A stretch of 64,000 nucleotides of DNA from an uncultured Candidatus Saccharibacteria bacterium. GTDB taxonomy: Bacteria; Patescibacteriota; Saccharimonadia; Saccharimonadales; Saccharimonadaceae. Positions 13,280-46,605 of the stretch are shown piece after piece (position 1 is the stretch's first letter; each line of letters starts with the position of its first letter). The translations under genes and the position numbers were made by a program. The notes beneath the pieces are model-generated. The model was not told the DNA's origin. It ran no database searches and saw only the letters and a list, made by a program, of their open reading frames with translations. The stretch lies in assembly GCA_937906385.1 (NCBI GenBank), contig CALCYQ010000001.1:81632-145631 (forward strand), written 5' to 3'.

Positions 13280-13897
13280 ATGAATGAGCATAGTGCATCG
13301 CCGACTTTAGAGCAAAGCCAACAACAACTAGAATATCCCCCAGTCAAGGAAGAGAAACCCGGTTATCACATCAAAAAGGGCGCCCTAATTGCGGCGGCGA
13401 TTTTTGCCATCGTTGGTATCTGTCTCTATTTTGTTTTCAATACGCAAATAGGCGGCGGTATCGACAGAAATAAATATTCCGCCCAAACGCGTGCTAAATA
13501 TACCGGTATCCCACAATGTGCGTCTGGCGAAGGCGGCACTTGTACTATCACTTACGAATATGAAGTCGACGGCAAAACCTATACTAAAACTTTTTATAAT
13601 CTCGATGGCTATGATTTGCTGAATTCGAACGACGCCAAGATTTATTACAACCCAAATGATCCAAACGATGCTTCTTTAGCACCAAATACCCTCAATCCGG
13701 ACAATGCCATCAAAAACTATTATGGCGGCCAATTTAAATCCATCGGAATCGCGCTAATCGGTTTTGGCGTTTTGTTGCTCATTGACGCTTTTGTCGGCTA
13801 CTACATTGACACTTTCCACAAGAATATTAATAAAAAGCTGCAAGAAGCCGCCGACAAATCCGTCGAATCGAAAAAAGGCCAAAATGGAACAGCGTGA
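13280..13897 (+). CDS. DUF3592-like membrane protein
   Basis: TM helix, small beta domain (TITYEYEVDGKTYTKTFYNL..IYYNPNDPNDA), then TM helices, as in DUF3592. Confidence 0.45.
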   Translation: MNEHSASPTLEQSQQQLEYPPVKEEKPGYHIKKGALIAAAIFAIVGICLYFVFNTQIGGGIDRNKYSAQTRAKYTGIPQCASGEGGTCTITYEYEVDGKTYTKTFYNLDGYDLLNSNDAKIYYNPNDPNDASLAPNTLNPDNAIKNYYGGQFKSIGIALIGFGVLLLIDAFVGYYIDTFHKNINKKLQEAADKSVESKKGQNGTA

Positions 13898-14405
13898 TTT
13901 ATTCGACAAAAATCGTCAGCCGCTCGGCAAAACCATTACGGCCGGCGAGCGCATTCCGCCAGATAGTTACATCGTTGTCGTGATGATTATTATCCAGAAT
14001 TCGCAGGGCGATTTTCTGATTCAAAAACGCGCCAAAAACAAATCTTTCGGGAATATGTATGGCCTAACTGGCGGCCATCCTAAAGCTGGCGAGACTAGCC
14101 CAGAAGGCGCCGCTACTGAACTTACCGAAGAGCTCGGCATCAAAATTGCACCAGAAAAACTGAAACTAATTTGCGCGCGTCGTATCGATGCAGAACGCGT
14201 TTTTTCGGACATTTATTATCTTCAAATTGACGTCGCGCTAGATGGGCTCAAACTCCAGCCCGAAGAAGTCGATTCCGCCTATTGGTTTAATCTTTATCGC
14301 ATTCGCGAGGAATATAACGAAGGGCATTTCGTGCCGCCGCACTACGAAGAACTTACGAATGCCTTGCGTTACGGCGTTATTGATGTGAGCAAAGTTGCAA
14401 AATAA
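13884..14405 (+). CDS. NUDIX hydrolase
   Basis: Nudix box GGHPKAGETSPEGAATELTEELGI. Start moved to the in-frame ATG at 13884 (MEQRDLF), giving a 14-nt overlap with the upstream gene. Confidence 0.8.
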   Translation: MEQRDLFDKNRQPLGKTITAGERIPPDSYIVVVMIIIQNSQGDFLIQKRAKNKSFGNMYGLTGGHPKAGETSPEGAATELTEELGIKIAPEKLKLICARRIDAERVFSDIYYLQIDVALDGLKLQPEEVDSAYWFNLYRIREEYNEGHFVPPHYEELTNALRYGVIDVSKVAK

Positions 14406-15222: not shown

Positions 15223-15248
15223 TACCCCCGCTGAGGGGGTATTTTTTT
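15223..15248. terminator. Bidirectional intrinsic terminator
   Basis: taccccc/gggggta stem with gctga loop, A-run on the left and T7 on the right. Lies between convergent genes. Confidence 0.75.
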
Positions 15249-16248
15249 ATTCCAAACCTAAGTGTTTTTTCGCAAGGTCTGTCACGACGCGTCCGCGTGG
15301 CGTGCGCTGCAACATGCCAAGCTGAATCAAAAACGGCTCTAAATAATCTTCAATCGTCGAGGCTTCGTCGCCGGTTAGTGCTGCAATTGTATTTAGGCCG
15401 ACTGGTTTATCGCCGTATTTCTCAATCATCAATGTGAGCATGTTGCGGTCGGCCGGATCCAGGCCGAGCTCGTCAATCTCCAGCATGTCGAGCGCCTTTT
15501 TGGCGGTCGGCACATCTACGATACCATCACCATTCACGTCGGCGTAATCGCGCACACGCTTCAAAAGCCTGTTCGCGATGCGCGGCGTCAGGCGTGAGCG
15601 GGTGGCTAGCAACCTTGCGGCATCCGCGTCAATTTTAGTATCCAAAATCTTGGCCGAGCGCTCGATGATTTGCTGTATATCGCCATCGGCATAATACTCC
15701 AAGCGGTACGAATGACCAAAGCGATCGCGTAGCGGCCCAGCCAAATTGCCGGCTTGTGTGGTGGCGCCAATCAAAGTAAAGCGGGGAAGGTCGAGCTTCA
15801 CGCTGCGCGCGGCCGGTCCTTTACCAATCACGATATCAAGCTTGTAATCTTCCATCGCGGAGTAAAGAATCTCCTCCACGGCGCGGCGCAAACGATGAAT
15901 CTCGTCAATAAATAAAATGTCGCCATCGGTCAAGTTTGTCAGGATACTAGCAAGGTCGCCAGCTTTCTCAATCGACGGGGCAGAAGTAGCACGAAAATTT
16001 GCATTCATCTCGTGCGCAATCACGCCGGCCATAGTAGTCTTGCCAAGGCCTGGCGGACCATACAGAAGCACGTGATCCATTACATCGCCGCGTTTTTTCG
16101 CGGCATCAATCGCGAGCTTCAAATTAGTCTTCAAACGACGCTGGCCAATATATTCGTCAAAATTAGTCGGGCGCAGAGAAAACTCAACGGCACGTTCTTC
16201 GTTGTCGTCTTCGTGTAGACTGGTATCAATCACCCTCTCGATAGCCAT
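15247..16248 (-). CDS. ruvB: Holliday junction DNA helicase RuvB
   Basis: AAA+ Walker A (GPPGLGKTT), Walker B ([10 protein letters not shown]), RuvB C-terminal winged helix. Leaderless geometry on the minus strand: TGcTATAAT is the complement of 16255-16263, ATG at 16248. Confidence 0.95.
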
Positions 16249-16282
16249 ATCTGTATTATAGCACCTATGGTATAATAACTTA

Positions 16283-16349
16283 CAGAGGGATAGCTCTAGA
16301 AACTATCCCGATGGTTTGGATGAGTTAGCCTTTAGCTAACTCATTTTTT
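16283..16349 (+). ncRNA. sRNA unit 1 of a four-copy family (candidate antisense/antitoxin RNA)
   Basis: TGgTATAAT 16268-16276. Hairpin gggatag-CTCTAGAAA-ctatccc 16287-16309. Linker GATGGTTTGG. Terminator atgagttagc/gctaactcat plus T6 ending at 16349. The 5' end is predicted, not mapped. Confidence 0.55.
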
Positions 16350-16415
16350 CTAAACAAACCGGATACGGATTCGTAACTCCACTATCCACACTCGAATAGT
16401 AATCGTCACGTTCAT
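16350..16415 (-). CDS. Mini-ORF 1, 21 aa (MNVTITIRVWIVELRIRIRFV), candidate type I toxin-like peptide
   Basis: SD GAGGAAGG immediately upstream. The stop abuts the sRNA-1 terminator. Homologous to mini-ORFs 2 and 4, with synonymous codon differences. Confidence 0.45.
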   Translation of the reverse strand: MNVTITIRVWIVELRIRIRFV

Positions 16416-16587
16416 CCTTCCTCAGAGCGTCTAGTTATCTAGAATCCTGTTCATTGAAGCTCTGCGAGCTCAACAACAACTTCAATGCCAGCCCAAACCA
16501 TTAAGACACCATGCGGTGCGTTTCTGACTATATAGTCAATTACAAAACCGACAAGCATAAGTGCAATGGTTTTGGTATAATAGCATT

Positions 16588-16658
16588 AATGAGCGCAACT
16601 CTAGAAATTACGCTCGATGGTTTGGTTCGTCGCTATTTAATTAGCGACGAATTTTTTT
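16588..16658 (+). ncRNA. sRNA unit 2
   Basis: TGgTATAAT 16573-16581. Hairpin gagcgcaa-CTCTAGAAA-ttacgctc 16591-16615. Linker GATGGTTTGG. Terminator ttcgtcgcta/tagcgacgaa plus T7. Confidence 0.55.
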
Positions 16659-16721
16659 GAATTTCGGAAATCGAATTCCAAACTCCACACTGACGCCTAG
16701 GATAATTATCCGTACGCTCAT
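16641..16721 (-). CDS. Mini-ORF 2, 26 aa (MSVRIIILGVSVEFGIRFPKFKKIRR)
   Basis: SD GGAGGAA (complement of 16731-16737). The last 6 codons run through the sRNA-2 terminator hairpin. Confidence 0.45.
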   Translation of the reverse strand: MSVRIIILGVSVEFGIRFPKFKKIRR

Positions 16722-16898
16722 GTAAAGCACTTCCTCCGAGACCTCTAGCTATCTAGAATTACCGTTCAATGAAGCCTCAGCGAGCCGGGTTTCATTTGCG
16801 AATCGCAGGAACATTCAAACGGAGCAAACCTCAACCCCGAGCGAAAAGCTACCGTCAATCAATCGACAGCACAAGCATAAATACGATATAATATTATC

Positions 16899-16963
16899 AT
16901 TGAGAATAGCTCTAGAAACTATCCTCGGGTTGTTTTAGTTAGCCGTTACCGGCTAACTTTTTT
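16899..16963 (+). ncRNA. sRNA unit 3 (partner ORF deleted)
   Basis: TATAAT 16887-16892. Hairpin gagaatag-CTCTAGAAA-ctatcctc 16902-16926. Linker GGGTTGTTTT. Terminator agttagccg/cggctaact plus T5. Confidence 0.5.
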
Positions 16964-17031
16964 CGGCTTACGCACGAATCGAATTTCGGATTTCAACTAA
17001 GCATAAGTTCAAGATTTGGTATAATAACATT

Positions 17032-17102
17032 ATGGGCGCGTAACTAGGATTACGCCCAAAGTTTTGGTTTAAGTGACTCTCCTAACGGCGAGCCACTTTT
17101 TT
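17032..17102 (+). ncRNA. sRNA unit 4 (diverged copy)
   Basis: TGgTATAAT 17017-17025. Bulged hairpin gggcg(cg)taa-CTAGGA-ttacgccc 17034-17057. Linker AAAGTTTTGGTTTA. Imperfect terminator 17073-17096 plus T6. Confidence 0.5.
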
Positions 17103-17165
17103 ACGCTTCGTCACATCGATACTTAGCGTAACTCTCACGATCCACAACTTAATGCAGACACTCAA
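17082..17165 (-). CDS. Mini-ORF 4, 27 aa, TTG start (MSVCIKLWIVRVTLSIDVTKRKKVARR)
   Basis: SD GAAAGGAG with a 5-nt spacer to TTG. The 3' 21 nt lie inside the sRNA-4 terminator. Aligns with mini-ORF 2 (MSV.I....V.V...I...K.KK..RR). Confidence 0.4.
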   Translation of the reverse strand: MSVCIKLWIVRVTLSIDVTKRKKVARR

Positions 17166-17330
17166 ATCACTCCTTTCCCATGGACTCTAGCGAGGCCTAG
17201 TATGCTGTTTATTGAGTCCATGCGAGATGAACTTAATATTTGCGTAAGGGATAAACCAAGATTCCCGACTCAAAATAGCGTCAATAAAAATCGATTAAAA
17301 GCATAAGTTCAAGATTTTTCGCACAAACCC

Positions 17331-17564
17331 TATAAAAACAGATATAATAAAGGTGGAACTTACAATTTAACAATATATCGCGTTTTAGCTGACGCATTTT
17401 CGCGTTGCAAAAACTTTGATTGCAGCTCCCATAGGAGTCGGTCTTATAGTTTTTGCCTAAAACGCGAAATTGTAGGTTCCAGCCGGCGACTTGGGGGCTG
17501 CAATTTTTATTAAATTGCTGTGCCAAAAAATTATCAAACATAAGAGTAATTGGAACCTACGATT
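17331..17564 (+). promoter_or_regulatory. Promoter(s) and about 220-nt structured 5' leader of the Type III mod gene
   Basis: TTCAAG-17-TATAAA (17308-17336) and gaTATAAT (17343-17348). Helices: 17355-17366 with 17469-17480; 17379-17387 with 17458-17466; 17420-17430 with 17493-17503 followed by T5. Box GGAACCTAC is repeated at 17552-17560, directly before the ATG. Confidence 0.5.
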
Positions 17565-19478
17565 ATGAGCAGCCTCATTGAACTGCTACCAAAGGTAGTC
17601 AGTGAGGGGCGCAGAGAAGCAAATAGAATTTTGGACGGACTTTCTGCTGCGTCCCGTATTACTTTACAAACTAATGAACTTATTCAGCCGCACAAGGACC
17701 GCAGTCAGGCAGAAATCCTCAACGACGATATTGAATATGTTGACGATTGGAAGAATCGCCTAGTCTATGGCGATAATCTACTAGTCATGCAGGCACTTTT
17801 GGCTGGCGACCCGGCTTCGGGCCTACCTAGCATGCGCGGCAAAATTGACTTGATTTATATTGATCCGCCATATGATAGCAAGGCAGATTATCGTACGAAA
17901 ATAGAACTTCCGGGTGCGAATATTGACAGTAAACCGACCGTGCTTGAGCAGTTTGCTTACGCTGACACTTGGAGTGCGAACATTGATGGCGAAGACGTGA
18001 AGGGTACAGCTGCTTATTTAAAATATATGTATCCGCGGTTGGTAGTTATGAGAGAGCTCTTAAGTGAGCGGGGCAATATATGTGTTCATCTAGATTATCA
18101 TGTCGGCGCGTATATGCGCGTAATACTTGATGATATATTTGGTAAGGAAAATTTAAAAAATGAAATAATATGGGGCTATTCTGGCGGAGGAGTTTCAAAG
18201 AATAAATTTGCCCAGAAGCACGATACACTTTATTGTTACGCGAAAAGTAATGATTCGATTTTTAATGCTCAATATGCGCCATATTCTGAAAAATCCCAAG
18301 CTCTCATTAACTCAAGAGGAGGAACTAGTATTGATGGAAAAGAAAGAGATTTGGGCCGCGGAAAACATATGGAGGACTGGTGGGGCGATATACAATCACT
18401 TCAAACGTTTGATACGGAACGAGTTAATTATGGAACTCAGAAGCCAGAAAAACTATTGGAAAGAATAGAAAAGGCTTTTTCGAATAATGGCTCTATCGTC
18501 GCCGATTTCTTTGGCGGCTCCGGCACTACTGCTGCGGTAGCGGAAAAACTTGGCCGTAAATGGATTACTTCGGACATCGGCAAACCTGCCACTATGATTA
18601 TGCGCAAACGTTTCATCGATAACGACGCTGGTGAATTTCTATATCAATCCGTTGGCGATTATCAGCGCGAGCAAATGAGTACAAACTTTGGTACACGTTT
18701 CCGCGTTGGTGATTTAAATCAAATCGTCATTAACTTGTATGGTGCTGTTCCGTTCCGCGAAGAAGATAATCCGCGTCGCAACTTAGGCAAAATTCCGCGC
18801 ACGAAACGTCTCGTTTATGTCGCTTCGCCGTCGGAATTAGTTTCGGCAAATACCATCAAACGCGCGCTTGATGAAATGAATACTTTTCAGGGCGGATGGG
18901 ATAAAGTTGCATTGCTCGGCTGGAATTTCCGTAGCGACCTTGGCGCATATTTGGAAACGCTCGAAGAATACAAGAATGGTACGCTGACGATTGAAATTAT
19001 CCCGCCAGATCTTCTCGACCAATTGAAGAGCAAAACTACGTTTAAGAAACTTAGCGACCAAGTTGCGGTCGATCCAGACGGTACAATTCGTACACCAGTT
19101 CGCTTCTCATCACTCCAGTATCTCACCATTAAAGACCCAATCGTGAACGGCAACGAAATTACTGTAGAGCTAGATAACTATGTAATTTTATCTTCGGATT
19201 CTTTGCCACTCGATTCCAAGAATAAAGAAAAAATGAATGAAGTTATTGCGCGTGACCCGCTTGCACTAATTGAATATTGGTCTATCGATACCGACTTTGA
19301 CGGCAACGTCTTCCGCAGTACTTGGCAGGATTATCGCCAAAATACCGATAACGATAGTGACGCACTGCATGTCGTAAACAAAGTTACGCTCCCGCTTAAC
19401 AATACAACTGGCCTTATTGCTATCAGGGCAGTAGACGTCTTTGGCTTTGAAAGTGAAGTAATTGCAAGGATTGATTGA
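17565..19478 (+). CDS. mod: Type III restriction-modification DNA methyltransferase (Mod), N6-adenine/N4-cytosine beta class
   Basis: Motif [12 protein letters not shown] precedes motif [24 protein letters not shown]. About 640 aa and immediately followed by res. Start taken at ATG 17565 rather than TTG 17550. Confidence 0.9.
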
Positions 19479-19481
19479 TAT

Positions 19482-22382
19482 ATGGAAATTGACGAACAAA
19501 AACGCTACAAATATCCTCCACTAGCCTTTGCGAAGGCCGTAACTGAACGCGCCAAAGCAGCCTGGGAAGACGGCAGCTTTATGGAATCTGTCACACCAAC
19601 TACGCGCGCATTGTTAACTTACTGGTTCGACGATGCTTATGTAGATATGCGCGACCTGAACTTCCATATTGGGCAGCGTAATGCCATCATGAATATTATT
19701 TATATTCATGAAGTGCTCAAAAAAGATAAAGTTGTTGATGTTTATAATGAAATCGCTCCGCAGCTCCTATTGGAACGTGGCGGTACAAAGTTGAGTGAAC
19801 TTGGCGACGATATTTATTCCTTCCCAAAATACTGCGTAAAAATGGCAACCGGTACCGGTAAAACTTGGGTGCTTGAAGCCTTAATGATTTGGCAATACTT
19901 AAATGCCAAACATAACGAAGAAGGAAACTATACTAAGAATTTCCTCGTTGTTGCGCCTGGCTTAATCGTCTATGAACGTTTGCTCGATGCGTTCCTCGGC
20001 AAAATGAACGACGATGGCCAAACTCGCAATTTCGAAACGTGTGATATTAAGAAATTCGAGAATCTATTTTTGCCAGAAGAATACCGTAATGAATTTTACG
20101 GTTTTTTGCAGAGTAGCGTAGCCGCCAAAACCGAAATTGGTAGTAAAGTTACCGGTGATGGTTTAATTGCTATTACAAACTTTCATTTACTCATGGGGGC
20201 AGATGAGCAAGAAGACGAACCGGGCATTGACGACGGTTGGCGCTTGCCGGTTGCTCCGGGTATTACGGCGGGAAATAGCCTAGATTCGTTAGATAATTCG
20301 CTCCGCGGTAAAAAGGAGCTCGAATTCCTACACAATCTTCCGGACCTTATGATGATTAACGACGAGGCCCATCACATTCACGACAATATAAAGGGTGGTG
20401 AAAAGGAAGAAGTTGAATGGCAAAAATCTTTGCGCTACATCGCCGAAGGCAAAGCTAATCGTGCTATGCAGTTAGATTTTTCCGCCACGCCATACAACCA
20501 AAAGGGCAAAGAAAAAGTTTATTTTCCACACATTGTTGTAGATTTCGATTTAACTGACGCGATTCGTCGTGGTTTAGTGAAAACTTTGATGCTTTCCGAG
20601 CGTAAAGAATTAGCAACTGAGGCTCTAGTTTTTAAAGCTGTGCGCAATGATCGCGGCGAGGTGGTGGATTTGTCTGATGGTCAACGCCAAATGCTTCGCG
20701 CCGGTCTTTCGAAACTAGCAAAACTCGAAGAAGAGTTTAGGGATGTCGATTCGACCAAACGACCAAAGATGATGGTAGTTTGTGAAGATACAAACGTAGT
20801 ACCGTTAGTTGCAAATTTTCTAAAGCTCGAAGGTTTAAGTCAAGAAGAATTTATAGAAATTCACAGCAATAAGAAAGGCGAAGTTGGCGAAGAAGAGTGG
20901 AATAATCTTCGCAACAAATTATTCGCGCTCGATCGTCACGAGAACCCACGCGTGGTTATTTCTGTTTTAATGCTTCGCGAAGGTTTTGACGTTAATAATA
21001 TCTGCGTTATCGTTCCGCTACGTAGTACAACTTCCGGAATTCTTCTAGAACAAACAATCGGTCGCGGTCTGCGCTTGATGTGGCGTGGCAATAAAGAAAT
21101 CGACGAGCTCAAAAATGAGAACCGTCGCGCGATTATGGTCGAGCATAAGGCGGCAACTAATTATTTCGACGTCTTATCGATCGTAGAACATCCGGCATTT
21201 CGCGATTTCTACGACGAGTTAGTAAACGGCGGCTTAATGGGTGTCGAGGATGGCGATGAAGAACTTGGAGACGATGGTAGGAAAGTTAAAGGCGACTTAA
21301 TTCCAGTCGGATTAAAAGACGATTATATGGATTACGATTTTCGCCTTCCGTTAATTATTAATGAGGCGGAGTCTGTCATGAAAACTCCATCGTTAGATGT
21401 TACGAAATTGAAACCATTCGGGATGAGCTATGACGCGCTTATCAAAATGATTCCAGAACGCGAGCAGTGGATTGATCAAGAAGTACTCAGCGGTGTTAAT
21501 GCTGGCTATTTCGAGGTGACATCCGGAGTATTTCGCTCTACTAGCTATAACGATTATCTAAGCCGTATTACGAATCATATCGTCGAAAAACTAAATACCG
21601 CCGACAGTCTTGGCCGTAGCCGTAAGGCATTAGATTTTCCTATTCTGTCTATTAATAATGTTCAAATTGCCGCATTAATAGATAAATATATTCGCAAGCA
21701 ATTATTTGGGCGCGAAATTAATCCAGCCGAAGGGAAGAACTGGAAGGCATTATTAATTACGGAAGTAATGAATCATATTATTGGGCAAATAGCTTCCGCT
21801 ATCATCGCCTCGCAAGAAGAGGCGGAGAATGTGGGCGAGACGAATGTAGTCTTTACGCCATTCTCAAGCGTAAATAAAATCACTGTTCGCGAAAACTATA
21901 GCCTAGATTTAGCAAAGTGCATCTACGAAAAGTGTCCATTCCCGAGCAATAAGGGCCAATATGAGCGCGATTTTATGGAATTTTGCGACAAAGATGGCGA
22001 GGTGGACGCTCTGTGCAAAGTGATAGAAAACCGCCATACTTTTGCTCGTTTTCGCTACGTGCGCGAAGATGGTATGCCGGCAGAATATATTCCTGATTTT
22101 GTAGTGCGTATTGGTAGCGATAATTATCTAGTAGAGACTAAATCTCAAGATCAAATATCGCACCAAAACGTCATCCGCAAAAAACGCGCAGCACTTCGTT
22201 GGGTTGAAAGAATTAATGACTTACCGCTCGGTAAGCGTGAAGATATTACCTGGCATTACGTACTCCTCGGCGACGCCACATTTTATGAATGGAAACGTAA
22301 AAATATGACAATTCGCGAGTTGCTAGAGTTCGCCGAAATTCGTAACAACGATGAGTTAAACTTCACTGGAAAATTATTCTAA
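19482..22382 (+). CDS. res: Type III restriction enzyme Res subunit (SF2 helicase plus PD-(D/E)xK nuclease)
   Basis: Walker A MATGTGKTW, DEAH box (MMINDEAHH), helicase motif VI (QTIGRGLR), C-terminal nuclease motif YIPDF..LVETK. Confidence 0.9.
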   Translation: MEIDEQKRYKYPPLAFAKAVTERAKAAWEDGSFMESVTPTTRALLTYWFDDAYVDMRDLNFHIGQRNAIMNIIYIHEVLKKDKVVDVYNEIAPQLLLERGGTKLSELGDDIYSFPKYCVKMATGTGKTWVLEALMIWQYLNAKHNEEGNYTKNFLVVAPGLIVYERLLDAFLGKMNDDGQTRNFETCDIKKFENLFLPEEYRNEFYGFLQSSVAAKTEIGSKVTGDGLIAITNFHLLMGADEQEDEPGIDDGWRLPVAPGITAGNSLDSLDNSLRGKKELEFLHNLPDLMMINDEAHHIHDNIKGGEKEEVEWQKSLRYIAEGKANRAMQLDFSATPYNQKGKEKVYFPHIVVDFDLTDAIRRGLVKTLMLSERKELATEALVFKAVRNDRGEVVDLSDGQRQMLRAGLSKLAKLEEEFRDVDSTKRPKMMVVCEDTNVVPLVANFLKLEGLSQEEFIEIHSNKKGEVGEEEWNNLRNKLFALDRHENPRVVISVLMLREGFDVNNICVIVPLRSTTSGILLEQTIGRGLRLMWRGNKEIDELKNENRRAIMVEHKAATNYFDVLSIVEHPAFRDFYDELVNGGLMGVEDGDEELGDDGRKVKGDLIPVGLKDDYMDYDFRLPLIINEAESVMKTPSLDVTKLKPFGMSYDALIKMIPEREQWIDQEVLSGVNAGYFEVTSGVFRSTSYNDYLSRITNHIVEKLNTADSLGRSRKALDFPILSINNVQIAALIDKYIRKQLFGREINPAEGKNWKALLITEVMNHIIGQIASAIIASQEEAENVGETNVVFTPFSSVNKITVRENYSLDLAKCIYEKCPFPSNKGQYERDFMEFCDKDGEVDALCKVIENRHTFARFRYVREDGMPAEYIPDFVVRIGSDNYLVETKSQDQISHQNVIRKKRAALRWVERINDLPLGKREDITWHYVLLGDATFYEWKRKNMTIRELLEFAEIRNNDELNFTGKLF

Positions 22383-22417
22383 ACTACCGCCTAATCGATA
22401 TAGGCTAAAATATAACC

Positions 22418-22945
22418 ATGGACCCAAGTTTATTAGCATTTATATTGGCTATTCTAATCGCGGCGCCAGTTTTAGCGCTAATGATTCAGAAAAGTAGTTT
22501 TAAGGCCACCAACAATCAAAAAACTATCAAAAAATCGACCTATCACTATTTTGCAAAAAACTACATCATGACTCAGCGCGAGTCCGAATTCTTTAAGCAG
22601 CTCAACGAAATGCTCGGCAGTAAATGGTATATCATTCCGCAGGTTCATTTATCGGCATTGCTAAACCATAAAGTAAAAGGGCAAAACTGGAACGCCGCCT
22701 TCAAGCATATTAATGGCAAATCTGTTGATTACGTCTTACTTAGTAAGGAAAATATGAAGCCAGTTTGCGCTATCGAATTAGACGATTCTACGCACGACCG
22801 CACGGATCGTACGGAACGCGATGCAGAAGTTGAACGCATTTTTGCTTCTGCAAAAATCCCTCTTGCTCGTTTACGCAAGCCCGAAGAAATGTCTCGCCAG
22901 GAAATTGTGAATATTATAGCTGAAGCAATCAAAAGAGTTAAATAA
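22418..22945 (+). CDS. DUF2726-domain protein (restriction-endonuclease-like fold), membrane anchored
   Basis: N-terminal TM helix. ESEFFKQL..IIPQVHLSALL..KSVDYVLLSKENMKPVCAIELDDSTHD matches the DUF2726 core. Leaderless geometry: TAAAAT 22406-22411. Confidence 0.65.
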   Translation: MDPSLLAFILAILIAAPVLALMIQKSSFKATNNQKTIKKSTYHYFAKNYIMTQRESEFFKQLNEMLGSKWYIIPQVHLSALLNHKVKGQNWNAAFKHINGKSVDYVLLSKENMKPVCAIELDDSTHDRTDRTERDAEVERIFASAKIPLARLRKPEEMSRQEIVNIIAEAIKRVK

Positions 22946-22984
22946 TTTTTGACAAACCTCATCCACTAGTTGTACCATTGCATT

Positions 22985-23356
22985 ATGCAAGTAATACAAT
23001 TTAAATTCGATAACGAACGGCCAATCTATTTGCAGTTGGTCGAACAGCTTCGGGTGGCCATTGTATCTGGGGCGTATGCGGCGGGCAGTCGACTCCCGTC
23101 CGTACGCGAGCTTGCCGTGATGGCAAAAGTGAACCCCAATACCATGCAAAAGGCCCTGACCGAACTCGAATCAGACCGGCTGATTTTTACCGAACGCACA
23201 AACGGTAAATTCGTTACGAACGACCAGCGCTTGCTCGACAAAATTAAAACCGAGCTAGCAAGCGACCTGGTGCAAAAATACACCAGCGACATGGCCAAAA
23301 TTGGCATTACTTACGCGGATTCTATCAAATATCTAAAACAACTAGGAGGGCAGTAG
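22985..23356 (+). CDS. GntR-family (YtrA-subfamily) transcriptional regulator
   Basis: Winged-helix motif PIYLQLVEQLRVAIVSG..GSRLPSVRELAVMAKVNPNTMQKALTELE, short C-terminus. Start set at ATG 22985, behind TTGACA 22949-22954 and TGtACCAT. Confidence 0.8.
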   Translation: MQVIQFKFDNERPIYLQLVEQLRVAIVSGAYAAGSRLPSVRELAVMAKVNPNTMQKALTELESDRLIFTERTNGKFVTNDQRLLDKIKTELASDLVQKYTSDMAKIGITYADSIKYLKQLGGQ

Positions 23357-24067
23357 ATGGCAGCATTGCTTGAATGTAAACATCTATGCAAAAGCTTCGA
23401 CCGGCGTGTCGTGCTAGACGATGTCAATCTCAAAATTGACAAAGGCAAAATTATTGGCCTATTGGGCAAAAATGGTGCAGGGAAGTCGACATTAATCAAA
23501 CTTGTGAATGATTTATTGACGATAGATTCCGGCCAAATTCTCTTTAAAGGCAAACCGATTGGCGTAAATTCCAAGGCGCACATTTCGTATTTGCCAGAGC
23601 GCACTTATCTCGACAAAACGATGACCATTAAGCAGGCATTCAAAATGTTTAGTGAGTTTTATGCGGACTTCGACCTTGAACGCGCGCACGCTCTACTTGC
23701 GGATCTCGACCTCGACGAGGGTATGAAAATCGCCAAAATGAGCAAAGGTATGCAGGAAAAATTGCAGCTGATTCTCGTCATGTCGCGCGACGCAGATTTG
23801 TATATTTTAGACGAGCCGCTCGGCGGTGTCGATCCAGCCACGCGCGACCATATCCTCGACACAATTTTGTCCAACTTCAAAGAAGGTTCGAGCGTAATAA
23901 TTTCCACGCATCTCATTTCCGACGTGGAACGCATTTTGGACGACGTGATTTTTATCGACAAAGGCCAAATCGTTTTAACTGGTTCGGCTGACAAACTGCG
24001 CGCTAAACACAAAGCATCCATTAATGATATTTTTAGGAGTATGTTCTATGCTAAGAAAACTCATTAA
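23357..24067 (+). CDS. ABC transporter ATP-binding protein
   Basis: Walker A GKNGAGKST, signature MSKGMQEKL, Walker B LYILDEP. Confidence 0.9.
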   Translation: MAALLECKHLCKSFDRRVVLDDVNLKIDKGKIIGLLGKNGAGKSTLIKLVNDLLTIDSGQILFKGKPIGVNSKAHISYLPERTYLDKTMTIKQAFKMFSEFYADFDLERAHALLADLDLDEGMKIAKMSKGMQEKLQLILVMSRDADLYILDEPLGGVDPATRDHILDTILSNFKEGSSVIISTHLISDVERILDDVIFIDKGQIVLTGSADKLRAKHKASINDIFRSMFYAKKTH

Positions 24068-24827
24068 ATACGACCTCTTATGGATGAATCGTACACTTAT
24101 TATCTTTTATATCATTACGTTTGTCTTTGCGATTCTTATGCGTCTCGGCGAGAATCTTACCGATTCCGTCATTGGTAGTCTTCTGCGTCACATCTTGCCA
24201 GGTTTCGTAATTGGTGCCATGATTAACGTTATTATAAATGCCGCTATTCGTATTTGGGTGCGTTTCCGTCAAAATTGCTACAAAGATGAAGCATATCTCA
24301 CTCATACGCTGCCAATTACTCGCGCTCAACTTTATGATAGCAAGGTTATTGCTGCGCTCATTTCAACTGTCATTGCGGTTGCTGTTGTTATTACGTGTTT
24401 CTTTATTGCCTTCTGGAATAATGATATGTATGAATATTTTTGCTCTCTTGTTGAAAATGCTGATATGGGCTTCATCATTGGCGGCATTCTCGTTACGGCT
24501 TTGCTCGAAATAATTTACGTTATTGCGGTTGGTCTTTTCGGTCTAGTTGTCGGCCATCGTCGTAATAATAATCGAGTATTATATTCCGTCGTCATTGGCA
24601 TGATTCTTTACTTCACCTTACAAGCAATTCTGCTTGCCGTCATTTATTGCATCGGGTTCTTCGATGATGGCATCAAAGCTATGTTTGAGAGTAGCCCAGA
24701 AAATGCCATCAGCCTCGATAACTATCGCACGCTCATTGTTTCGGCTGATACTGCCTATCTTGTTCTTAATGTTTGCCTCTATGCGCTCGGTAAACATTAC
24801 TTCGAAAAAGGCGTCAACGTCGATTAA
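24048..24827 (+). CDS. ABC-2-type permease partner (about 6 TM)
   Basis: AGGAG at 24035-24039 lies 8 nt before ATG 24048. Polytopic membrane protein. Position matches ytrA-like GntR/ATPase/permease operons. Confidence 0.6.
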   Translation: MLRKLIKYDLLWMNRTLIIFYIITFVFAILMRLGENLTDSVIGSLLRHILPGFVIGAMINVIINAAIRIWVRFRQNCYKDEAYLTHTLPITRAQLYDSKVIAALISTVIAVAVVITCFFIAFWNNDMYEYFCSLVENADMGFIIGGILVTALLEIIYVIAVGLFGLVVGHRRNNNRVLYSVVIGMILYFTLQAILLAVIYCIGFFDDGIKAMFESSPENAISLDNYRTLIVSADTAYLVLNVCLYALGKHYFEKGVNVD

Positions 24828-24888
24828 CGATTTGCCACCCACTCCACTTAGCTGTTAAAATATATCTAACAACTAAGTGGAGTATTTA

Positions 24889-25437
24889 ATGTCTAAGAAT
24901 TTATCCGGCACCAAAACCGAAGCCAATTTGAACGCCGCTTTTTCTGGCGAATCTCAGGCTCGTGTCAAATACCAGTTCTTTGCCAGCAAAGCTAAGAAAG
25001 AGGGCTACGAGCAAATCGCTGAAATCTTCCAAGAGACCAGCGACAACGAAAAAGAGCATGCCAAAATGTGGTATAAGGCTCTTCATGAAGACAACTCCGT
25101 GCCTGATACTATTTCCAATTTGAAAGAGGCCATCGCCGGCGAGGAATACGAAGAGACTGAAATGTACGTTAAATTCGCCGCTGAAGCTCGCGAAGAAGGC
25201 TTCGAAGAAATCGCCAGGCTCTTTGAAGAAGTTGGCAAGATTGAAGCCGAGCATGAAAAGCGCTATCGCAAGCTCCTCGAAAATATCGAGAAGGGCATGG
25301 TCTTCAAGTCCGACGGTGTCACTGTCTGGAAATGTCGCAACTGTGGCTATATCCACATCGGCGAAAAGGCACCAGAGAAGTGCCCAGTCTGCTTCCATCC
25401 ACAGAGCTACTTTGAAATTCGCGCCGAGAATTATTAA
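24889..25437 (+). CDS. rbr: Rubrerythrin
   Basis: Ferritin-like diiron ExxH motifs (EKEHAKMW, AEHEKRY) plus a C-terminal rubredoxin-type CxxC..CPVC. Start at ATG 24889 after GGAG. Confidence 0.9.
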   Translation: MSKNLSGTKTEANLNAAFSGESQARVKYQFFASKAKKEGYEQIAEIFQETSDNEKEHAKMWYKALHEDNSVPDTISNLKEAIAGEEYEETEMYVKFAAEAREEGFEEIARLFEEVGKIEAEHEKRYRKLLENIEKGMVFKSDGVTVWKCRNCGYIHIGEKAPEKCPVCFHPQSYFEIRAENY

Positions 25438-25442
25438 TTATC

Positions 25443-26192
25443 ATGGCCGGTTTGTCTCAGTACAAGCGGCGCCGCGTCACGGCCGTCATTGTGGCGGCCG
25501 GACTTTTTGCTCTTTTCCTAATTTTCAATCCGGCCGCCTATCAATACATTTCGCCGGACGGTGGCGCCCTCATCGACAACGTCGCAAATGTCCAAAGCAA
25601 AGACCAAACCAAGCCCGACTCCATGAAGGCCTATGATGTTCTAAACGCCCTCGCCGTCCGCGCAAAAGACACCAGCCAAAAATACTATCGCAAGCAATTT
25701 TACGACAGCTGGGGCCTCACCGCTTCTGGCTGCAACACCCGCGAAGCCATCCTTACCCGCGATCTTACCGACAAAGTCATGAAGGGTTGCAAAGTGCAAT
25801 CCGGTACGTTGAGCGACCCGTATACTGGTAAAACTATCAACTTCGTGCGCGGAGAAGACACCTCCGGCGCCGTCCAAATCGATCATGTCGTCGCGCTCAG
25901 TAACGCTTGGGCCACTGGCGCTTACGCTTTTGATGCCGATACGCGTTATCAAATCAGCCAAGATCCACTCAATCTTCTCGCCGTAGACGGCCCAGCCAAT
26001 CAAGAAAAACTCGACCAAGATGCCTCCACCTGGTTACCCAGTAATCAAGCTTTCCGCTGCCAATACGTCGCCCGCCAAATCTCCGTTAAATATAAATATC
26101 AGCTTTGGGTGACGCCGGCCGAAAAAGTCGCCATGCAAAAAGTTCTCACTTTCTGCCCTAACGAGCCTACTGTAGGACTAGAAAATCCGTAA
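25443..26192 (+). CDS. Membrane-anchored/secreted HNH-type nuclease, DUF1524 family
   Basis: N-terminal TM helix. CNTREAIL.., VQIDHVVALSNAW, NLLAVDGPANQEK and WLP.. motifs are typical of the DUF1524 extracellular nuclease-like family. Confidence 0.65.
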   Translation: MAGLSQYKRRRVTAVIVAAGLFALFLIFNPAAYQYISPDGGALIDNVANVQSKDQTKPDSMKAYDVLNALAVRAKDTSQKYYRKQFYDSWGLTASGCNTREAILTRDLTDKVMKGCKVQSGTLSDPYTGKTINFVRGEDTSGAVQIDHVVALSNAWATGAYAFDADTRYQISQDPLNLLAVDGPANQEKLDQDASTWLPSNQAFRCQYVARQISVKYKYQLWVTPAEKVAMQKVLTFCPNEPTVGLENP

Positions 26193-27057
26193 CCTGGTAA
26201 TTGTCGCCGGACACTTCCGCCGCCGCCAGAATCGCCGCGCCGCCCCCATTTTTGGCAAGGTACATTTCCGCCGCAAAGCGCATTTTTTCGAGCTTTTTCT
26301 TATCAATCGCGTCTAGGCCACCGCCAGCGCGGCGGTATTTTACTTCCGTAAAACACAGCACACCATTAAACCGCGAAATTACATCGATTTCGCAATACTT
26401 ATTCTTCCAATTGCGCGCCACAATCTCGTGGCCCGATTCGCGTAGATAATCGCACACCGCGCTCTCGCCGCGGTCGCCCTTCTCACGTGTGCTACCCACG
26501 TAAGCCGCAATCGGTTTGAAACTTTTGCGGTGCTCCGGACACGGTCCCAACTTTTCTAGCGCCGCCTTGTGTGCTGCCGTGCCGTAGCCGACATGTTTTT
26601 CGAAACCATAGCCCGGATATTTCTCGGCCAATTTATACATATATTCATCCCGCGCCACCTTCGCCACAATCGAGGCCGCCGACACTTCCGGCACCAGTAA
26701 ATCTGCCTTCTTCAGCACCTGCACATGGCCGGCCAGCGGGGTATCGCGCAAAAAATTCATCGTGCCATCAATCACAATTTCATGAAATGGCACTTTTATT
26801 TGTTTCGCGGCCGCGCGCGCTGCTTTACAGAGCGCTTTCGAGAGACCAATCCGGTCTAATTCTTCAGCTGAAACCCAGCCCAAGCCCACCGCGGCCTTTT
26901 CGCGAATCACCGGCGCCAACGCTTCGCGCTTTTTCGGCGTCAATTTCTTTGAATCAGTTAATCCTTCAATCTGCGCATCGCCCAGCACGCACGCGCCCAC
27001 AACAAGAGGCCCCGCCCAGGGGCCTCTGCCAACTTCATCTATTCCTAAGATTGCCAA
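26167..27057 (-). CDS. rnhB: RNase HII fused to a YraN (UPF0102) endonuclease-like domain
   Basis: N-terminus ILGIDEVGRGPWAGPLVVGA (RNase HII). C-terminus GDRGESAVCDYLRESGHEIVARNW..CEIDVIS..LCFTEVKYR (YraN). Start placed at in-frame TTG 27057, 2 nt after the rplS stop; the listed ORF start at 27144 would overlap rplS by 86 nt. Confidence 0.8.
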   Translation of the reverse strand: MAILGIDEVGRGPWAGPLVVGACVLGDAQIEGLTDSKKLTPKKREALAPVIREKAAVGLGWVSAEELDRIGLSKALCKAARAAAKQIKVPFHEIVIDGTMNFLRDTPLAGHVQVLKKADLLVPEVSAASIVAKVARDEYMYKLAEKYPGYGFEKHVGYGTAAHKAALEKLGPCPEHRKSFKPIAAYVGSTREKGDRGESAVCDYLRESGHEIVARNWKNKYCEIDVISRFNGVLCFTEVKYRRAGGGLDAIDKKKLEKMRFAAEMYLAKNGGGAAILAAAEVSGDNYQVTDFLVLQ

Positions 27058-46529: not shown

Positions 46530-46605
46530 CCTTCAATTATAGCATGGCTTAACAGAGATTAAACTTATGCTTTGCTACGCGTGAATTGACTGTTAATGTG
46601 GGCGC

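Follow-up and report, generated by a model that had tools for sequence, protein, structure and literature searches.

Probable tandem modules of a convergent antisense RNA and a small cationic peptide, resembling type I toxin-antitoxin systems, between ruvB and a Type III restriction-modification cassette in Saccharibacteria

[quoted passage not shown] Units 1, 2 and 4 are ~310-bp modules, each with a convergent minus-strand small ORF that has its own SD and a weak promoter; unit 3 is a truncated module. The original prediction of four + strand units was borne out position for position: in each, an extended -10 box is followed by a hairpin with a CTAG loop, a G/U linker and, at the end, an intrinsic terminator. 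The repeat unit, taken to be ~70 nt, was corrected to ~310 bp, conserved blocks being found downstream of every terminator, and the supposedly ORF-free gap lacks long ORFs only: conserved ORFs of 19-27 codons lie on its minus strand. Each full unit, predicted as a stand-alone sRNA gene in an empty gap, is the 3' part of a module that encodes a peptide on the opposite strand, with an SD and its own promoter. Because the opposite strand of each full unit encodes a conserved small peptide, the sRNA is read as a convergent cis-antisense RNA, and because each unit belongs to a module that also encodes this peptide, cationic and 19-27 residues long, the units are best read as a type I TA-like family. 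We consider it probable that the array consists of tandem cis-antisense sRNA and small-peptide modules of this kind. Module architecture, coding signature and covariation are all evident in the copies described below. CM R1 and nhmmer searches of the 64-kb window yielded no further module copies.

The + strand units contain the following features.

16268-16276, + strand: extended -10 promoter of sRNA-1 (module 1), TGGTATAAT, 10 bp from the -10 box of leaderless ruvB on the other strand
16283-16350, + strand: sRNA-1 (~67 nt), fold -26.5 kcal/mol, z -5.2, CM R1 57.5 bits
16287-16309, + strand: hairpin 1 of sRNA-1, GGGATAG/CTATCCC, loop CTCTAGAAA
16310-16319, + strand: G/U linker of sRNA-1; terminator hairpin 16320-16343, then T6
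16573-16581, + strand: extended -10 promoter of sRNA-2 (module 2), TGGTATAAT
16588-16658, + strand: sRNA-2 (~71 nt), with fold, CM R1 64.4 bits
16591-16615, + strand: hairpin 1 of sRNA-2, GAGCGCAA/TTACGCTC, one C.A mismatch
16624-16653, + strand: terminator of sRNA-2, then T7; preceded by linker GATGGTTTGG
16884-16964, + strand: module 3 (truncated), -10 TATAAT 16887-16892, sRNA-3 16899-16964, CM R1 62.3 bits
16937-16958, + strand: terminator of sRNA-3, then T6; hairpin GAGAATAG/CTATCCTC
17017-17025, + strand: extended -10 promoter of sRNA-4 (module 4), TGGTATAAT
17032-17102, + strand: sRNA-4 (~71 nt), z only -1.45, CM R1 49.9 bits
17034-17057, + strand: hairpin 1 of sRNA-4, GGGCG[CG]TAA/TTACGCCC, loop CTAGGA
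17071-17096, + strand: terminator of sRNA-4, then T6; preceded by linker AAAGTTTTGGTTTA

Chance would give 0.39 occurrences of the -10 box TGGTATAAT in the 64-kb window; there are five, three of them in this array, and the same box drives a tRNA gene in the window. All three occurrences of the loop sequence CTCTAGAAA in the window (0.44 expected) lie in the array, each exactly 17 nt after the -10 box. The predicted RNAs, 66-71 nt long, all fold into a 5' hairpin and a terminator hairpin, with z-scores of -5.2, -3.9, -3.9 and -1.45 for units 1-4; the fourth unit is the weakest. A terminator scan detected the hairpin and T-run of units 2 and 3, and those of units 1 and 4 were seen in the folds. 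The predicted ruvB promoter was likewise found, as a minus-strand TATAAT (16260-16255) that precedes the ATG of ruvB (16248) by 6 nt and lies 10 bp away from the -10 box of unit 1; the junction sequence between the sRNA-1 and ruvB promoters, tagcacctatggTATAAT, is also present in L090, L091, L092 and L099. Near-identical copies of sRNA-4 exist in L091 and L092. 

From related Saccharibacteria genomes and metagenomes we recovered 31 sRNA copies and 23 full modules, many of which are not independent since all come from one clade (rumen, gut and oral Saccharibacteria). The promoter-hairpin-terminator architecture that had been predicted recurs in the 31 copies: every copy has TAnAAT and 27 of 31 also the TGn extension, with the spacing to the loop fixed at 17±1 nt; the CUAGRA motif of the loop is conserved; and all but a few have a T-run after the second hairpin, that of the L001 copy being weak. 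A distant copy, L077, has an additional perfect TTGACA -35 box. The second hairpin has the form of a Rho-independent terminator, a GC-rich stem running straight into a T-run on the transcribed strand. This holds for at least 10 unrelated stems, which differ in sequence between groups, and A-type modules, in which the complement of the T-run is non-coding, have kept it too. By geometry and conserved signals, with a + strand promoter and terminator, convergent on the ORF, each unit is a predicted antisense RNA gene.

The peptide ORFs on the opposite strand are as follows.

16350-16409, - strand: peptide ORF-1, A type, GTG start 16409 (alternative ATG 16415), MTITIRVWIVELRIRIRFV
16423-16416, - strand: SD of ORF-1, GAGGAAGG; the ORF-1 stop codon adjoins the sRNA-1 T-run
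16641-16721, - strand: peptide ORF-2, B type, MSVRIIILGVSVEFGIRFPKFKKIRR; SD GGAGGAAG 16737-16730
16946-17008, - strand: remnant of a D-type peptide gene, last 16 codons only (LKSEIRFVRKPKKVSR*), fused directly to the boundary motif 16999-17008
17082-17165, - strand: peptide ORF-4, C type, TTG start, MSVCIKLWIVRVTLSIDVTKRKKVARR; SD GGAAAGGAG 17178-17170

An ORF of 19-29 codons with an SD is present in 22 of the 23 modules. Its variable sites are distributed 20/10/42 over codon positions 1/2/3, and Arg codons interchange CGN and AGR forms. Six A-type orthologues of ORF-1 differ mostly by synonymous or conservative changes, and ORF-2 differs from its L088 orthologue at seven third-codon positions versus one each at positions 1 and 2. 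This clear coding signature indicates that the ORF is protein-coding and under purifying selection. The last 6 codons of ORF-2 overlap the sRNA-2 terminator, and the last 7 of ORF-4 the sRNA-4 terminator; overlap amounts to 18-22 nt in B, C and D types, whereas the A type abuts the sRNA with barely any overlap. The D-type remnant has no SD, start codon or 5' UTR, and sRNA-3 is therefore an orphan; L092 and L094 carry intact D modules.

A gap-free alignment of the peptides spans 21 residues, with the consensus MxxTIRIWIVExxxxIRFV and frequently a K/R tail. They carry a net charge of +3 to +7, their longest stretch free of charged residues measures 4-8 residues, and in most groups the amphipathic moment is 0.7-1.2 as a beta-strand versus 0.3-0.5 as an alpha-helix. 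They are not hydrophobic single-pass membrane peptides, as the toxins of most, not all, type I families are. A 35-aa hydrophobic ORF (16451-16558, - strand) was rejected as the toxin: its start is the boundary ATG, upstream of the inferred -10 box, its equivalents in modules 2 and 4 have only 7 codons, and the ATG is GTG or ACG in other modules.

Three of 80 fetched ruvB loci of related genomes (1.37 Mb) carry the family (L001, L003 and L077), and relatives have 1-4 tandem copies per array. Mosaic, truncated and frameshifted modules are present among them, and orphan sRNAs are retained. This multicopy, patchy and decaying distribution is the population behaviour of TA-like modules. Modules lie at both edges of the variable R-M island; the A-type module always adjoins ruvB on the same strand, and a GntR-ABC-membrane operon always lies at the far end of the island, with the R-M cassette between it and the array. 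A scan of viral contigs for the 5' UTR block gave no matches.

The peptide might be under antisense control without being an addiction or abortive toxin, and could instead be a small regulatory protein, or an antimicrobial that is host-directed or resembles leaderless bacteriocins. As epibionts, Saccharibacteria act at the surface of a host cell, the constant presence of the GntR-ABC-membrane operon would suit such a role, and these cationic, amphipathic, W/R/K-rich peptides resemble antimicrobial peptides more than transmembrane toxins. However, individual modules have no linked gene dedicated to export, immunity or maturation, the ABC operon lying beyond the R-M cassette, and the much stronger antisense promoter, the tandem diversification, the decay to orphan sRNAs and the island-edge site are typical of type I TA. 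We therefore regard this explanation as unlikely.

The peptide mRNAs have the following predicted features.

16430-16519, - strand: 5' UTR of mRNA-1, with a CTAG/CTAG hairpin (16430-16443) and a 5' terminal hairpin (16506-16519)
16452-16459 and 16480-16487, - strand: arms of the CUCGC-loop hairpin of mRNA-1, loop core 16464-16468
16502-16492, - strand: 5' box of mRNA-1, AAUGGUUUGGG, identical to the sRNA-1 linker
16527-16562, - strand: promoter of mRNA-1 (promoter scan), -10 TATAGT 16532-16527, -35 TTGTCG 16554-16549
16553-16562: conserved boundary motif CTTATGCTT beside the mRNA-1 promoter, + strand form AAGCATAAGT
16744-16882, - strand: 5' UTR and promoter of mRNA-2, CTAG hairpin 16744-16757, CUCGC-loop hairpin 16769-16795
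16830-16825, - strand: G/U box of mRNA-2; -10 TAGCTT 16851-16846; boundary motif 16873-16882
17187-17308, - strand: 5' UTR and promoter of mRNA-4, CTAG...CTAG 17187-17200, CUCGC-loop hairpin 17216-17234
17259-17252, - strand: 5' box of mRNA-4, UUGGUUUA, identical to part of the sRNA-4 linker
17277-17272, - strand: -10 TATTTT of mRNA-4; boundary motif 17299-17308

In the peptide promoter, A2 and T6 of the -10 box are invariant in six modules, and TAnnnT lies 17 nt from the hexamer adjacent to the boundary motif in 22 of 23. As the sRNA genes have TGnTATAAT and the peptide genes a poor -35 with TAnnnT, the sRNA promoter is predicted to be the stronger. As a -35 box for the sRNA promoters, AAGCATAAGT was rejected: it lies anywhere from 14 to 23 nt from the -10, and it fits the minus-strand peptide promoter instead. 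The 5' UTR is ~100 nt long and contains the apparently covarying CUCGC hairpin. RNAalifold on MAFFT alignments missed this long hairpin and the terminator because their arms were unaligned, and per-sequence folds were therefore used for these two helices.

The duplex of 5' box and linker had an energy of -13.2 kcal/mol within a module versus -10.0 kcal/mol between modules (permutation p<5e-5, likewise with 16 representatives). As judged by these energies, 5' box and linker co-vary within each module. The match between an mRNA 5' box and the linker of its own module's sRNA predicts a 5'-3' fold-back of the mRNA, with the sRNA as a competitor. Both the MFE and the centroid folds of mRNA-1 and mRNA-4 contain this 5'-3' helix, the whole-mRNA z-scores being -6.7 and -3.4. 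Transitions between 5' box and linker had no strand preference (18 versus 22). Pairing in trans between the sRNA 5' half and the peptide mRNA 5' UTR, as in par DRa/DRb, was rejected: RNAduplex energies did not surpass those of shuffles, and the sRNA 5' part paired with the 5' UTR no better than chance.

The predicted stem covariation around a conserved loop was confirmed, with compensatory changes at all eight hairpin 1 pairs. The covariation score was 0.65 on the + strand and 0.78 on the - strand, versus 0.25 and 0.32 in shuffles, none of 500 shuffles reaching the observed values, and RNAalifold independently recovered hairpin 1. The original caveat that the pairing might matter on the opposite strand proved apt: 92.9% of hairpin 1 cells are paired on the minus strand versus 84.8% on the plus strand, and the minus-strand form is 5.6 kcal/mol more stable in 28 of 31 copies. 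Because of this better minus-strand pairing, hairpin 1 is also read as the 3' stem-loop of the peptide mRNA. The terminator hairpin has a slight pairing advantage on the + strand. The minus-strand hairpin is not followed by any canonical terminator, and neither minus-strand hairpin has a following U-run.

Taken further, the first reading of the units would be a cluster of paralogous trans-acting sRNAs, with the loop or linker as seed for distant mRNA targets and the ORFs incidental, in the manner of LhrC1-5 (Listeria) and Qrr1-4 (Vibrio), which are tandem sRNA genes of ~70-110 nt. As in those clusters, promoter and terminator are individual to each unit and the loop motif, here CUAGRA, is conserved; moreover, orphan sRNAs persist after loss of the peptide gene. 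Unlike in LhrC and Qrr, each complete unit is coupled to an opposite-strand ORF, a physical coupling to an ORF under purifying selection in 23 modules; the linker is variable and follows the 5' box in its module's mRNA, rather than forming a fixed seed; and hairpin 1 is selected at least equally on the other strand. A trans-acting role of this kind seems distinctly improbable.

We give a similarly low probability to the reading that there is no sRNA, the hairpins being a 3' UTR stabiliser or terminator of the peptide mRNA and the + strand -10 boxes non-functional look-alikes; TATAATA read on the opposite strand is nearly unchanged. Such a reading would accommodate the greater stability and better pairing of hairpin 1 on the minus strand, and the mRNA fold prediction uses both elements. 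It is opposed by the strand-specific TGnTATAAT, which 27 of 31 copies keep at a fixed distance, by the T-run that follows the second hairpin on the + strand only and persists where its minus-strand complement is non-coding, by the perfect TTGACA -35 box of L077 and by the use of the same -10 box for a tRNA gene. That the small ORFs are attenuator leader peptides of a downstream co-directional gene (ruvB in the window) is extremely unlikely: the A-type module is always next to ruvB on the same strand and two hairpins follow the ORF, but most tandem modules are followed by another module and not by a gene, modules also precede unrelated genes such as a 768-aa ORF in L001, ruvB has its own leaderless promoter, and a U-run is absent after either minus-strand hairpin.

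The predicted antisense RNA-peptide module had no counterpart in Rfam, Pfam or NCBIfam. In keeping with the original prediction, no Rfam family covers the units: Rfam at gathering score identified only four tRNAs in the window, and Rfam 15 (E<=10; 16200-17600, both strands) gave no relevant match. Pfam-A and NCBIfam searches with eight representative peptides (E<=10) found no family, only one chance-level OEP match. In a literature search, type I toxin-antitoxin was never mentioned together with Saccharibacteria or Candidate Phyla Radiation.

Convergent type I TA systems of Firmicutes with 3' overlap include txpA/RatA, bsrG/SR4 and yonT/SR6 of B. subtilis, fst/RNA II of pAD1 par, and modules of C. 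difficile. Their peptide and RNA genes face each other with overlapping 3' ends (PMC5848175). The modules described here share this gene arrangement, an RNA with a strong promoter and terminator, and a highly structured mRNA. They differ in host phylum, have no sequence or profile similarity in RNA or peptide, and encode shorter peptides (19-27 aa) without a transmembrane segment and an sRNA of ~70 nt, compared with 100-220 nt. The C. difficile type I TA modules adjoin CRISPR arrays (PMC5961336), and the present modules likewise lie beside a defence locus, at R-M island edges. In Helicobacter pylori aapA1/IsoA1, the toxin mRNA is closed via its 3' end and the antisense RNA kisses its stem-loops (PMC5416894). 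An inert mRNA fold involving the 3' end and a loop-loop antisense contact, as in that system and in hok/Sok of plasmid R1, are proposed here too, and AapA1 shares peptides of ~30 aa with a basic C-terminus and several chromosomal copies. Whereas Sok and IsoA1 are complementary to the 5' portion of their mRNAs, the RNA here covers the 3' end; and since the mRNA 5' box is duplicated in it, it would be a direct competitor for the 3' partner, a mode not described for hok/Sok or aapA1/IsoA1. Diverged paralogous modules arranged head-to-tail in intergenic regions, with strain-variable copy number, are also a feature of E. coli ldr/rdl, ibs/sib and zor/orz. In these families, which are not related to the present module, the antitoxins overlap the 5' UTR or the whole ORF and the toxins are highly hydrophobic.

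We infer from the sequence features that both RNAs would be made and pair with each other and that the peptide would be toxic. On the minus strand, a weak sigma-70 promoter (CTYATGC, poor -35, 17 nt, TAnnnT) would produce a ~240-nt peptide mRNA comprising a structured 5' UTR (CUCGC and CTAG/CTAG hairpins), SD, ORF and 3' UTR. On the plus strand, the strong TGnTATAAT promoter would produce an sRNA of ~65-70 nt ending at the intrinsic terminator. With the genes convergent, full complementarity links the sRNA to the mRNA 3' UTR and, for B, C and D types, also to the final 6-7 codons. The full-length mRNA would be clamped by pairing of its G/U-rich 5' box with the C/A-rich 3' linker, with the stable 3' stem-loop (the complement of hairpin 1) adjoining the clamp. 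Abundant sRNA may then dock by loop-loop contact, since the palindrome CUAG, present in both loops, conforms to the YUNR motif. The weaker, C.A-mismatched stem of the sRNA would open, and its linker, a copy of the 5' box, would displace the latter. A duplex of ~70 bp would form, and peptide expression would be blocked or mRNA decay triggered.

To our knowledge, almost nothing is known of RNA-based regulation in Saccharibacteria, whose genomes are ~1 Mb. The locus yields an sRNA family with strong comparative support and a testable regulatory model, together with a family of very small proteins overlooked by gene callers, and the ruvB-mod gap of these genomes should not be annotated as non-coding. 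Tentatively, this may be the first RNA-regulated, type I TA-like toxin family in the Candidate Phyla Radiation, with a cationic beta-amphipathic effector, a linker-mimicry antisense RNA and arrays bracketing an R-M hot spot. If so, a cationic beta-amphipathic peptide of 19-27 residues would take the place of a membrane helix as effector, the antisense RNA would partly mimic the mRNA 5' box and compete for the 3' partner of the 5'-3' clamp, and the arrays may stabilise or gate the exchange hot spot of the Type III R-M cassette. A strongly reduced genome retains up to four copies of the module at the edge of a defence island; if confirmed, its non-transmembrane peptide, 3'-end antisense RNA and possible 5'-box mimicry would widen the range of type I TA mechanisms.

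The original prediction placed four plus-strand small RNA units between ruvB and the Type III mod gene, and all four were found there. Every unit has a TATAAT box (in three units as the extended form TGGTATAAT), a CTAG within the hairpin loop, and a G/U-rich linker followed by a GC hairpin and T5-T7. The window contains five occurrences of TGGTATAAT (0.39 expected by chance) and three of CTCTAGAAA (0.44 expected); all three CTCTAGAAA copies lie inside these units, each exactly 17 nt downstream of the -10 box. As proposed, the predicted RNAs (66-71 nt) fold into two hairpins (z = -5.2, -3.9, -3.9 and -1.45). Rfam gave no match for the units, neither at the gathering score nor at E<=10, in agreement with a fold outside the described RNA families. 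The ruvB promoter, 10 bp from unit 1, is apparently leaderless, with TATAAT 6 nt before the ATG (16249-16262). In the related locus L001, the ruvB promoter and the adjoining divergent -10 box are conserved, and the divergent promoter drives a 199-aa ORF, not an sRNA.

The promoter-hairpin-terminator part of the unit thus stood, but its size of about 70 nt did not: repeat finding and alignment indicated a repeat of ~310 bp, with conserved blocks 3' of each terminator. Nor is the gap free of ORFs, since the minus strand of each long unit carries a Shine-Dalgarno (SD) sequence (GAGGAAGG, GGAGGAAG or GGAAAGGAG) and a short ORF.

Features of the ruvB-mod region (ruvB and mod/res from Pfam)
15247-16248, minus strand, ruvB
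16263-16572, repeat 1
16409-16350, minus strand, peptide ORF of unit 1, MTITIRVWIVELRIRIRFV
16573-16886, repeat 2
16721-16641, minus strand, peptide ORF of unit 2, MSVRIIILGVSVEFGIRFPKFKKIRR
16887-17016, repeat 3 (short)
17017-17320, repeat 4
17165-17082, minus strand, peptide ORF of unit 4, MSVCIKLWIVRVTLSIDVTKRKKVARR
17550-22382, Type III mod/res pair

The peptide ORFs are directed toward the sRNA genes; those of units 2 and 4 stop within the sRNA terminator, and that of unit 1 directly at it.

A RuvB scan with one genome per species yielded 80 loci and put the window among Saccharibacteria of rumen, gut and oral samples. L003 carries two homologous modules and L001 one plus a remnant, and L077 has a distant family copy. 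One metagenome scan with the most conserved 5' UTR block added 20 loci, giving a total of 23 distinct full modules and 31 sRNA copies (nhmmer and pattern scan). A covariance model, R1, comprising the -10 box, hairpin 1 (the CTAG-loop hairpin) and the linker, was run over the window and the 80 ruvB loci (1.43 Mb) and returned only already-known copies; therefore, the family is patchy, with no further copies in the window. The distant member (L077 7747-8000) comes from a Saccharibacteria genome with just 74% RuvB identity. The sRNA promoter there is TTGACA-17-TACAAT, in which a perfect TTGACA replaces the TGn extension; the sRNA includes loop CTCTAGGAA and a terminator, and the ORF on the other strand, MHITIEITIFSFGNRRHRHRSAKTQSKEN, has SD GAGGAAGGAGGG.

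TAnAAT was found in all 31 sRNA copies and the TGn extension in 27, at a fixed distance from the loop. Across the copies, the terminator hairpin has at least 10 unrelated stem sequences, with a T-run after the hairpin in nearly every copy. In A-type modules (the group of module 1), the ORF stop precedes the T-run complement and the T-run is nonetheless kept, so Lys-Lys coding cannot account for it. These signals of the sRNA genes are conserved, and they are specific to one strand.

SD and an intact ORF were found in 22 of the 23 modules; the L090 copy (13817-14131), a decayed A-type copy, has lost 1 nt after the start codon. The peptides form six groups whose first 21 residues align gap-free (consensus MxxTIRIWIVExxxxIRFV). 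Within groups, variable sites at codon positions 1, 2 and 3 number 20, 10 and 42, and Arg codons alternate between CGN and AGR, a signature of coding rather than of RNA structure. These patterns indicate that the peptide gene is real. Pfam and NCBIfam gave no match to the peptides. Their net charge is +3 to +7, uncharged runs do not exceed 8 residues, and the amphipathic moment is higher for a beta-strand than for a helix; compared with reference toxin sequences, they thus do not resemble classical membrane-helix type I toxins.

The boundary motif AAGCATAAGT, whose minus-strand sequence is CTYATGCTT, is located immediately upstream of a poor -35 hexamer, with which it overlaps; TAnnnT follows the hexamer 17 nt (in some modules 16) later in 22 of 23 modules. 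This arrangement is that of a weak sigma-70 promoter, predicted to give a peptide mRNA with a ~100-nt 5' UTR. Another exact AAGCATAAGT copy, at 46520-46580 on the minus strand, precedes a TATAAT box and an ORF start by ~25 nt. By nhmmer it was unrelated to the modules, and it may reflect chance or a motif that promoter-proximal regions share. The 5' UTR contains a hairpin with invariant CUCGC in its loop, whose arms differ wholly between groups and are left unaligned by MAFFT, yet remain paired in predicted folds (CATTGAAG/CTTCAATG, ATGAGGCTC/GAGCCTCAT, AGTTCAT/ATGGACT and AAGACTC/GAGTCTT, among others). About 90-109 nt upstream of the start codon, a G/U-rich 5' box repeats the linker of its own module's sRNA (ATGGTTTGG in unit 1, TTGGTTTA in unit 4, GTTGGTTTAG in L003 and CGGGTTGA in D types); therefore, it is complementary to the linker in the mRNA's own 3' UTR. 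The predicted duplex has -13.2 kcal/mol within a module versus -10.0 between modules (permutation p<5e-5, likewise with 16 representatives). For units 1 and 4, both the MFE and the centroid fold of the predicted full-length mRNA contain the 5'-3' helix (z = -6.7 and -3.4); transition types favoured neither strand for this helix.

The ungapped alignment of 23 distinct hairpin 1 copies bore out the proposed stem covariation, with compensatory double changes at 8/8 pairs. The covariation score was 0.65 on the plus strand (sRNA) and 0.78 on the minus strand (peptide mRNA), against 0.25 and 0.32 in shuffles, and 0/500 shuffles attained it on either strand. RNAalifold independently found the helix, and partner-slid controls reduced pairing to 21-46%. 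Standard pairs filled 84.8% of cells on the plus strand and 92.9% on the minus strand, which justified the earlier caveat that the pairing could matter as 3' UTR structure of an opposite mRNA. Where the sRNA has recurrent C.A mismatches, the minus strand has U.G pairs; one pair is unpaired in 11/23 copies on the plus strand and U.G on the minus. By RNAfold, the minus-strand hairpin was more stable in 28/31 copies (mean 5.6 kcal/mol), and the terminator hairpin was slightly better on the plus strand. Because the minus strand pairs better and more stably, hairpin 1 is also the 3' stem-loop of the peptide mRNA, perhaps mainly so, and the sRNA copy is deliberately weaker. The original interpretation is supported in part: its sRNAs are likely real, not as stand-alone RNAs but as cis-antisense partners of overlooked peptide genes.

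The layout probably corresponds to a type I toxin-antitoxin (TA) module of the convergent kind, with overlapping 3' ends. The very small peptide would be encoded by a tightly folded mRNA with weak transcription; opposing this mRNA would be an antisense RNA of ~70 nt, strongly transcribed, that is complementary to the mRNA 3' end. The palindrome CUAG, present in both loops, could allow loop-loop docking; CUAG conforms to YUNR, a motif of the recognition loops of antisense RNAs. Next, the mismatched stem of the sRNA would open, the identical sRNA linker would displace the 5' box, and a ~70-bp duplex would silence or destabilise the mRNA. Par-like pairing between the 5' half of the sRNA and the 5' UTR of the mRNA was unsupported. 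The closest systems in layout are txpA/RatA, bsrG/SR4, yonT/SR6 and fst/RNA II, whereas hok/Sok and aapA1/IsoA1 come nearest in mRNA logic. Translation of aapA1 is impeded by the folding of its full-length mRNA, and the IsoA1 antitoxin binds two stem-loops by kissing contacts (PMC5416894). We found no homology to described RNA or peptide families, and none of the papers searched connects type I TA systems to Saccharibacteria or the CPR.

In close relatives, ruvB is followed by 1-4 modules in an array, a structured leader that is highly conserved, the Type III mod/res cassette, sometimes an F-type module or orphan sRNA, and a GntR-ABC-membrane operon. The cassette is variable (Mod 85% or only 27% identical). 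In the window, 17340-17564 contains a promoter (GATATAAT) and, downstream of it, the ~200-nt leader of the Type III mod gene, which is highly structured (MFE -80 kcal/mol, z -6.2). Its arm 17467-81 has alternative partners, 17354-68 or 17551-64; the latter pairing covers the start region (TTG 17550 / ATG 17565), so the leader resembles a switch acting on translation. Seven related loci share it at 92-98% identity, yet the mod alleles behind it are of three different kinds, which diverge immediately past the start codon.

Unit 3 is a truncated D-type module, of which only LKSEIRFVRKPKKVSR* is left, joined to the boundary motif; L092 and L094 keep the intact D module. Orphan sRNAs like sRNA-3 occur in five other loci, and near ruvB in L001 (9309-9356) only hairpin 1, linker and boundary motif survive. 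A mosaic in L091 (614-908), with promoter and 5' UTR like the B-type window module 2 and a C-like peptide (MSIHIKLWKVRVTLSIVFAKRKKKAR), suggests recombination between paralogous modules.

At the far edge of the restriction-modification island, adjoining the GntR-ABC operon, three relatives carry a diverged F-type module (peptide MSIQLRVWRVKVILTLKFGR) or its orphan sRNA (L001 4165-4475, L092 5149-5434, L100 6342-6485); the window has only a 24-nt gap there (22946-22969). GC falls from 0.47-0.52 in the flanks to ~0.43 across 16-24 kb, and the low-GC stretch as a whole (~0.42-0.43) covers 16000-26200. This stretch encodes Type III mod/res, a DUF2726 protein, GntR-ABC and a GmrSD_C-domain protein, and by this gene content the modules sit in a defence island. 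The island-edge position recalls the Clostridioides difficile type I modules beside CRISPR arrays (PMC5961336). Tandem diversification, decay with the RNA retained and position at the edges of a defence island all fit TA modules. The hydrophobic peptide usual for type I toxins is absent here; membership in the type I TA systems is supported by the predicted architecture, with toxicity putative.
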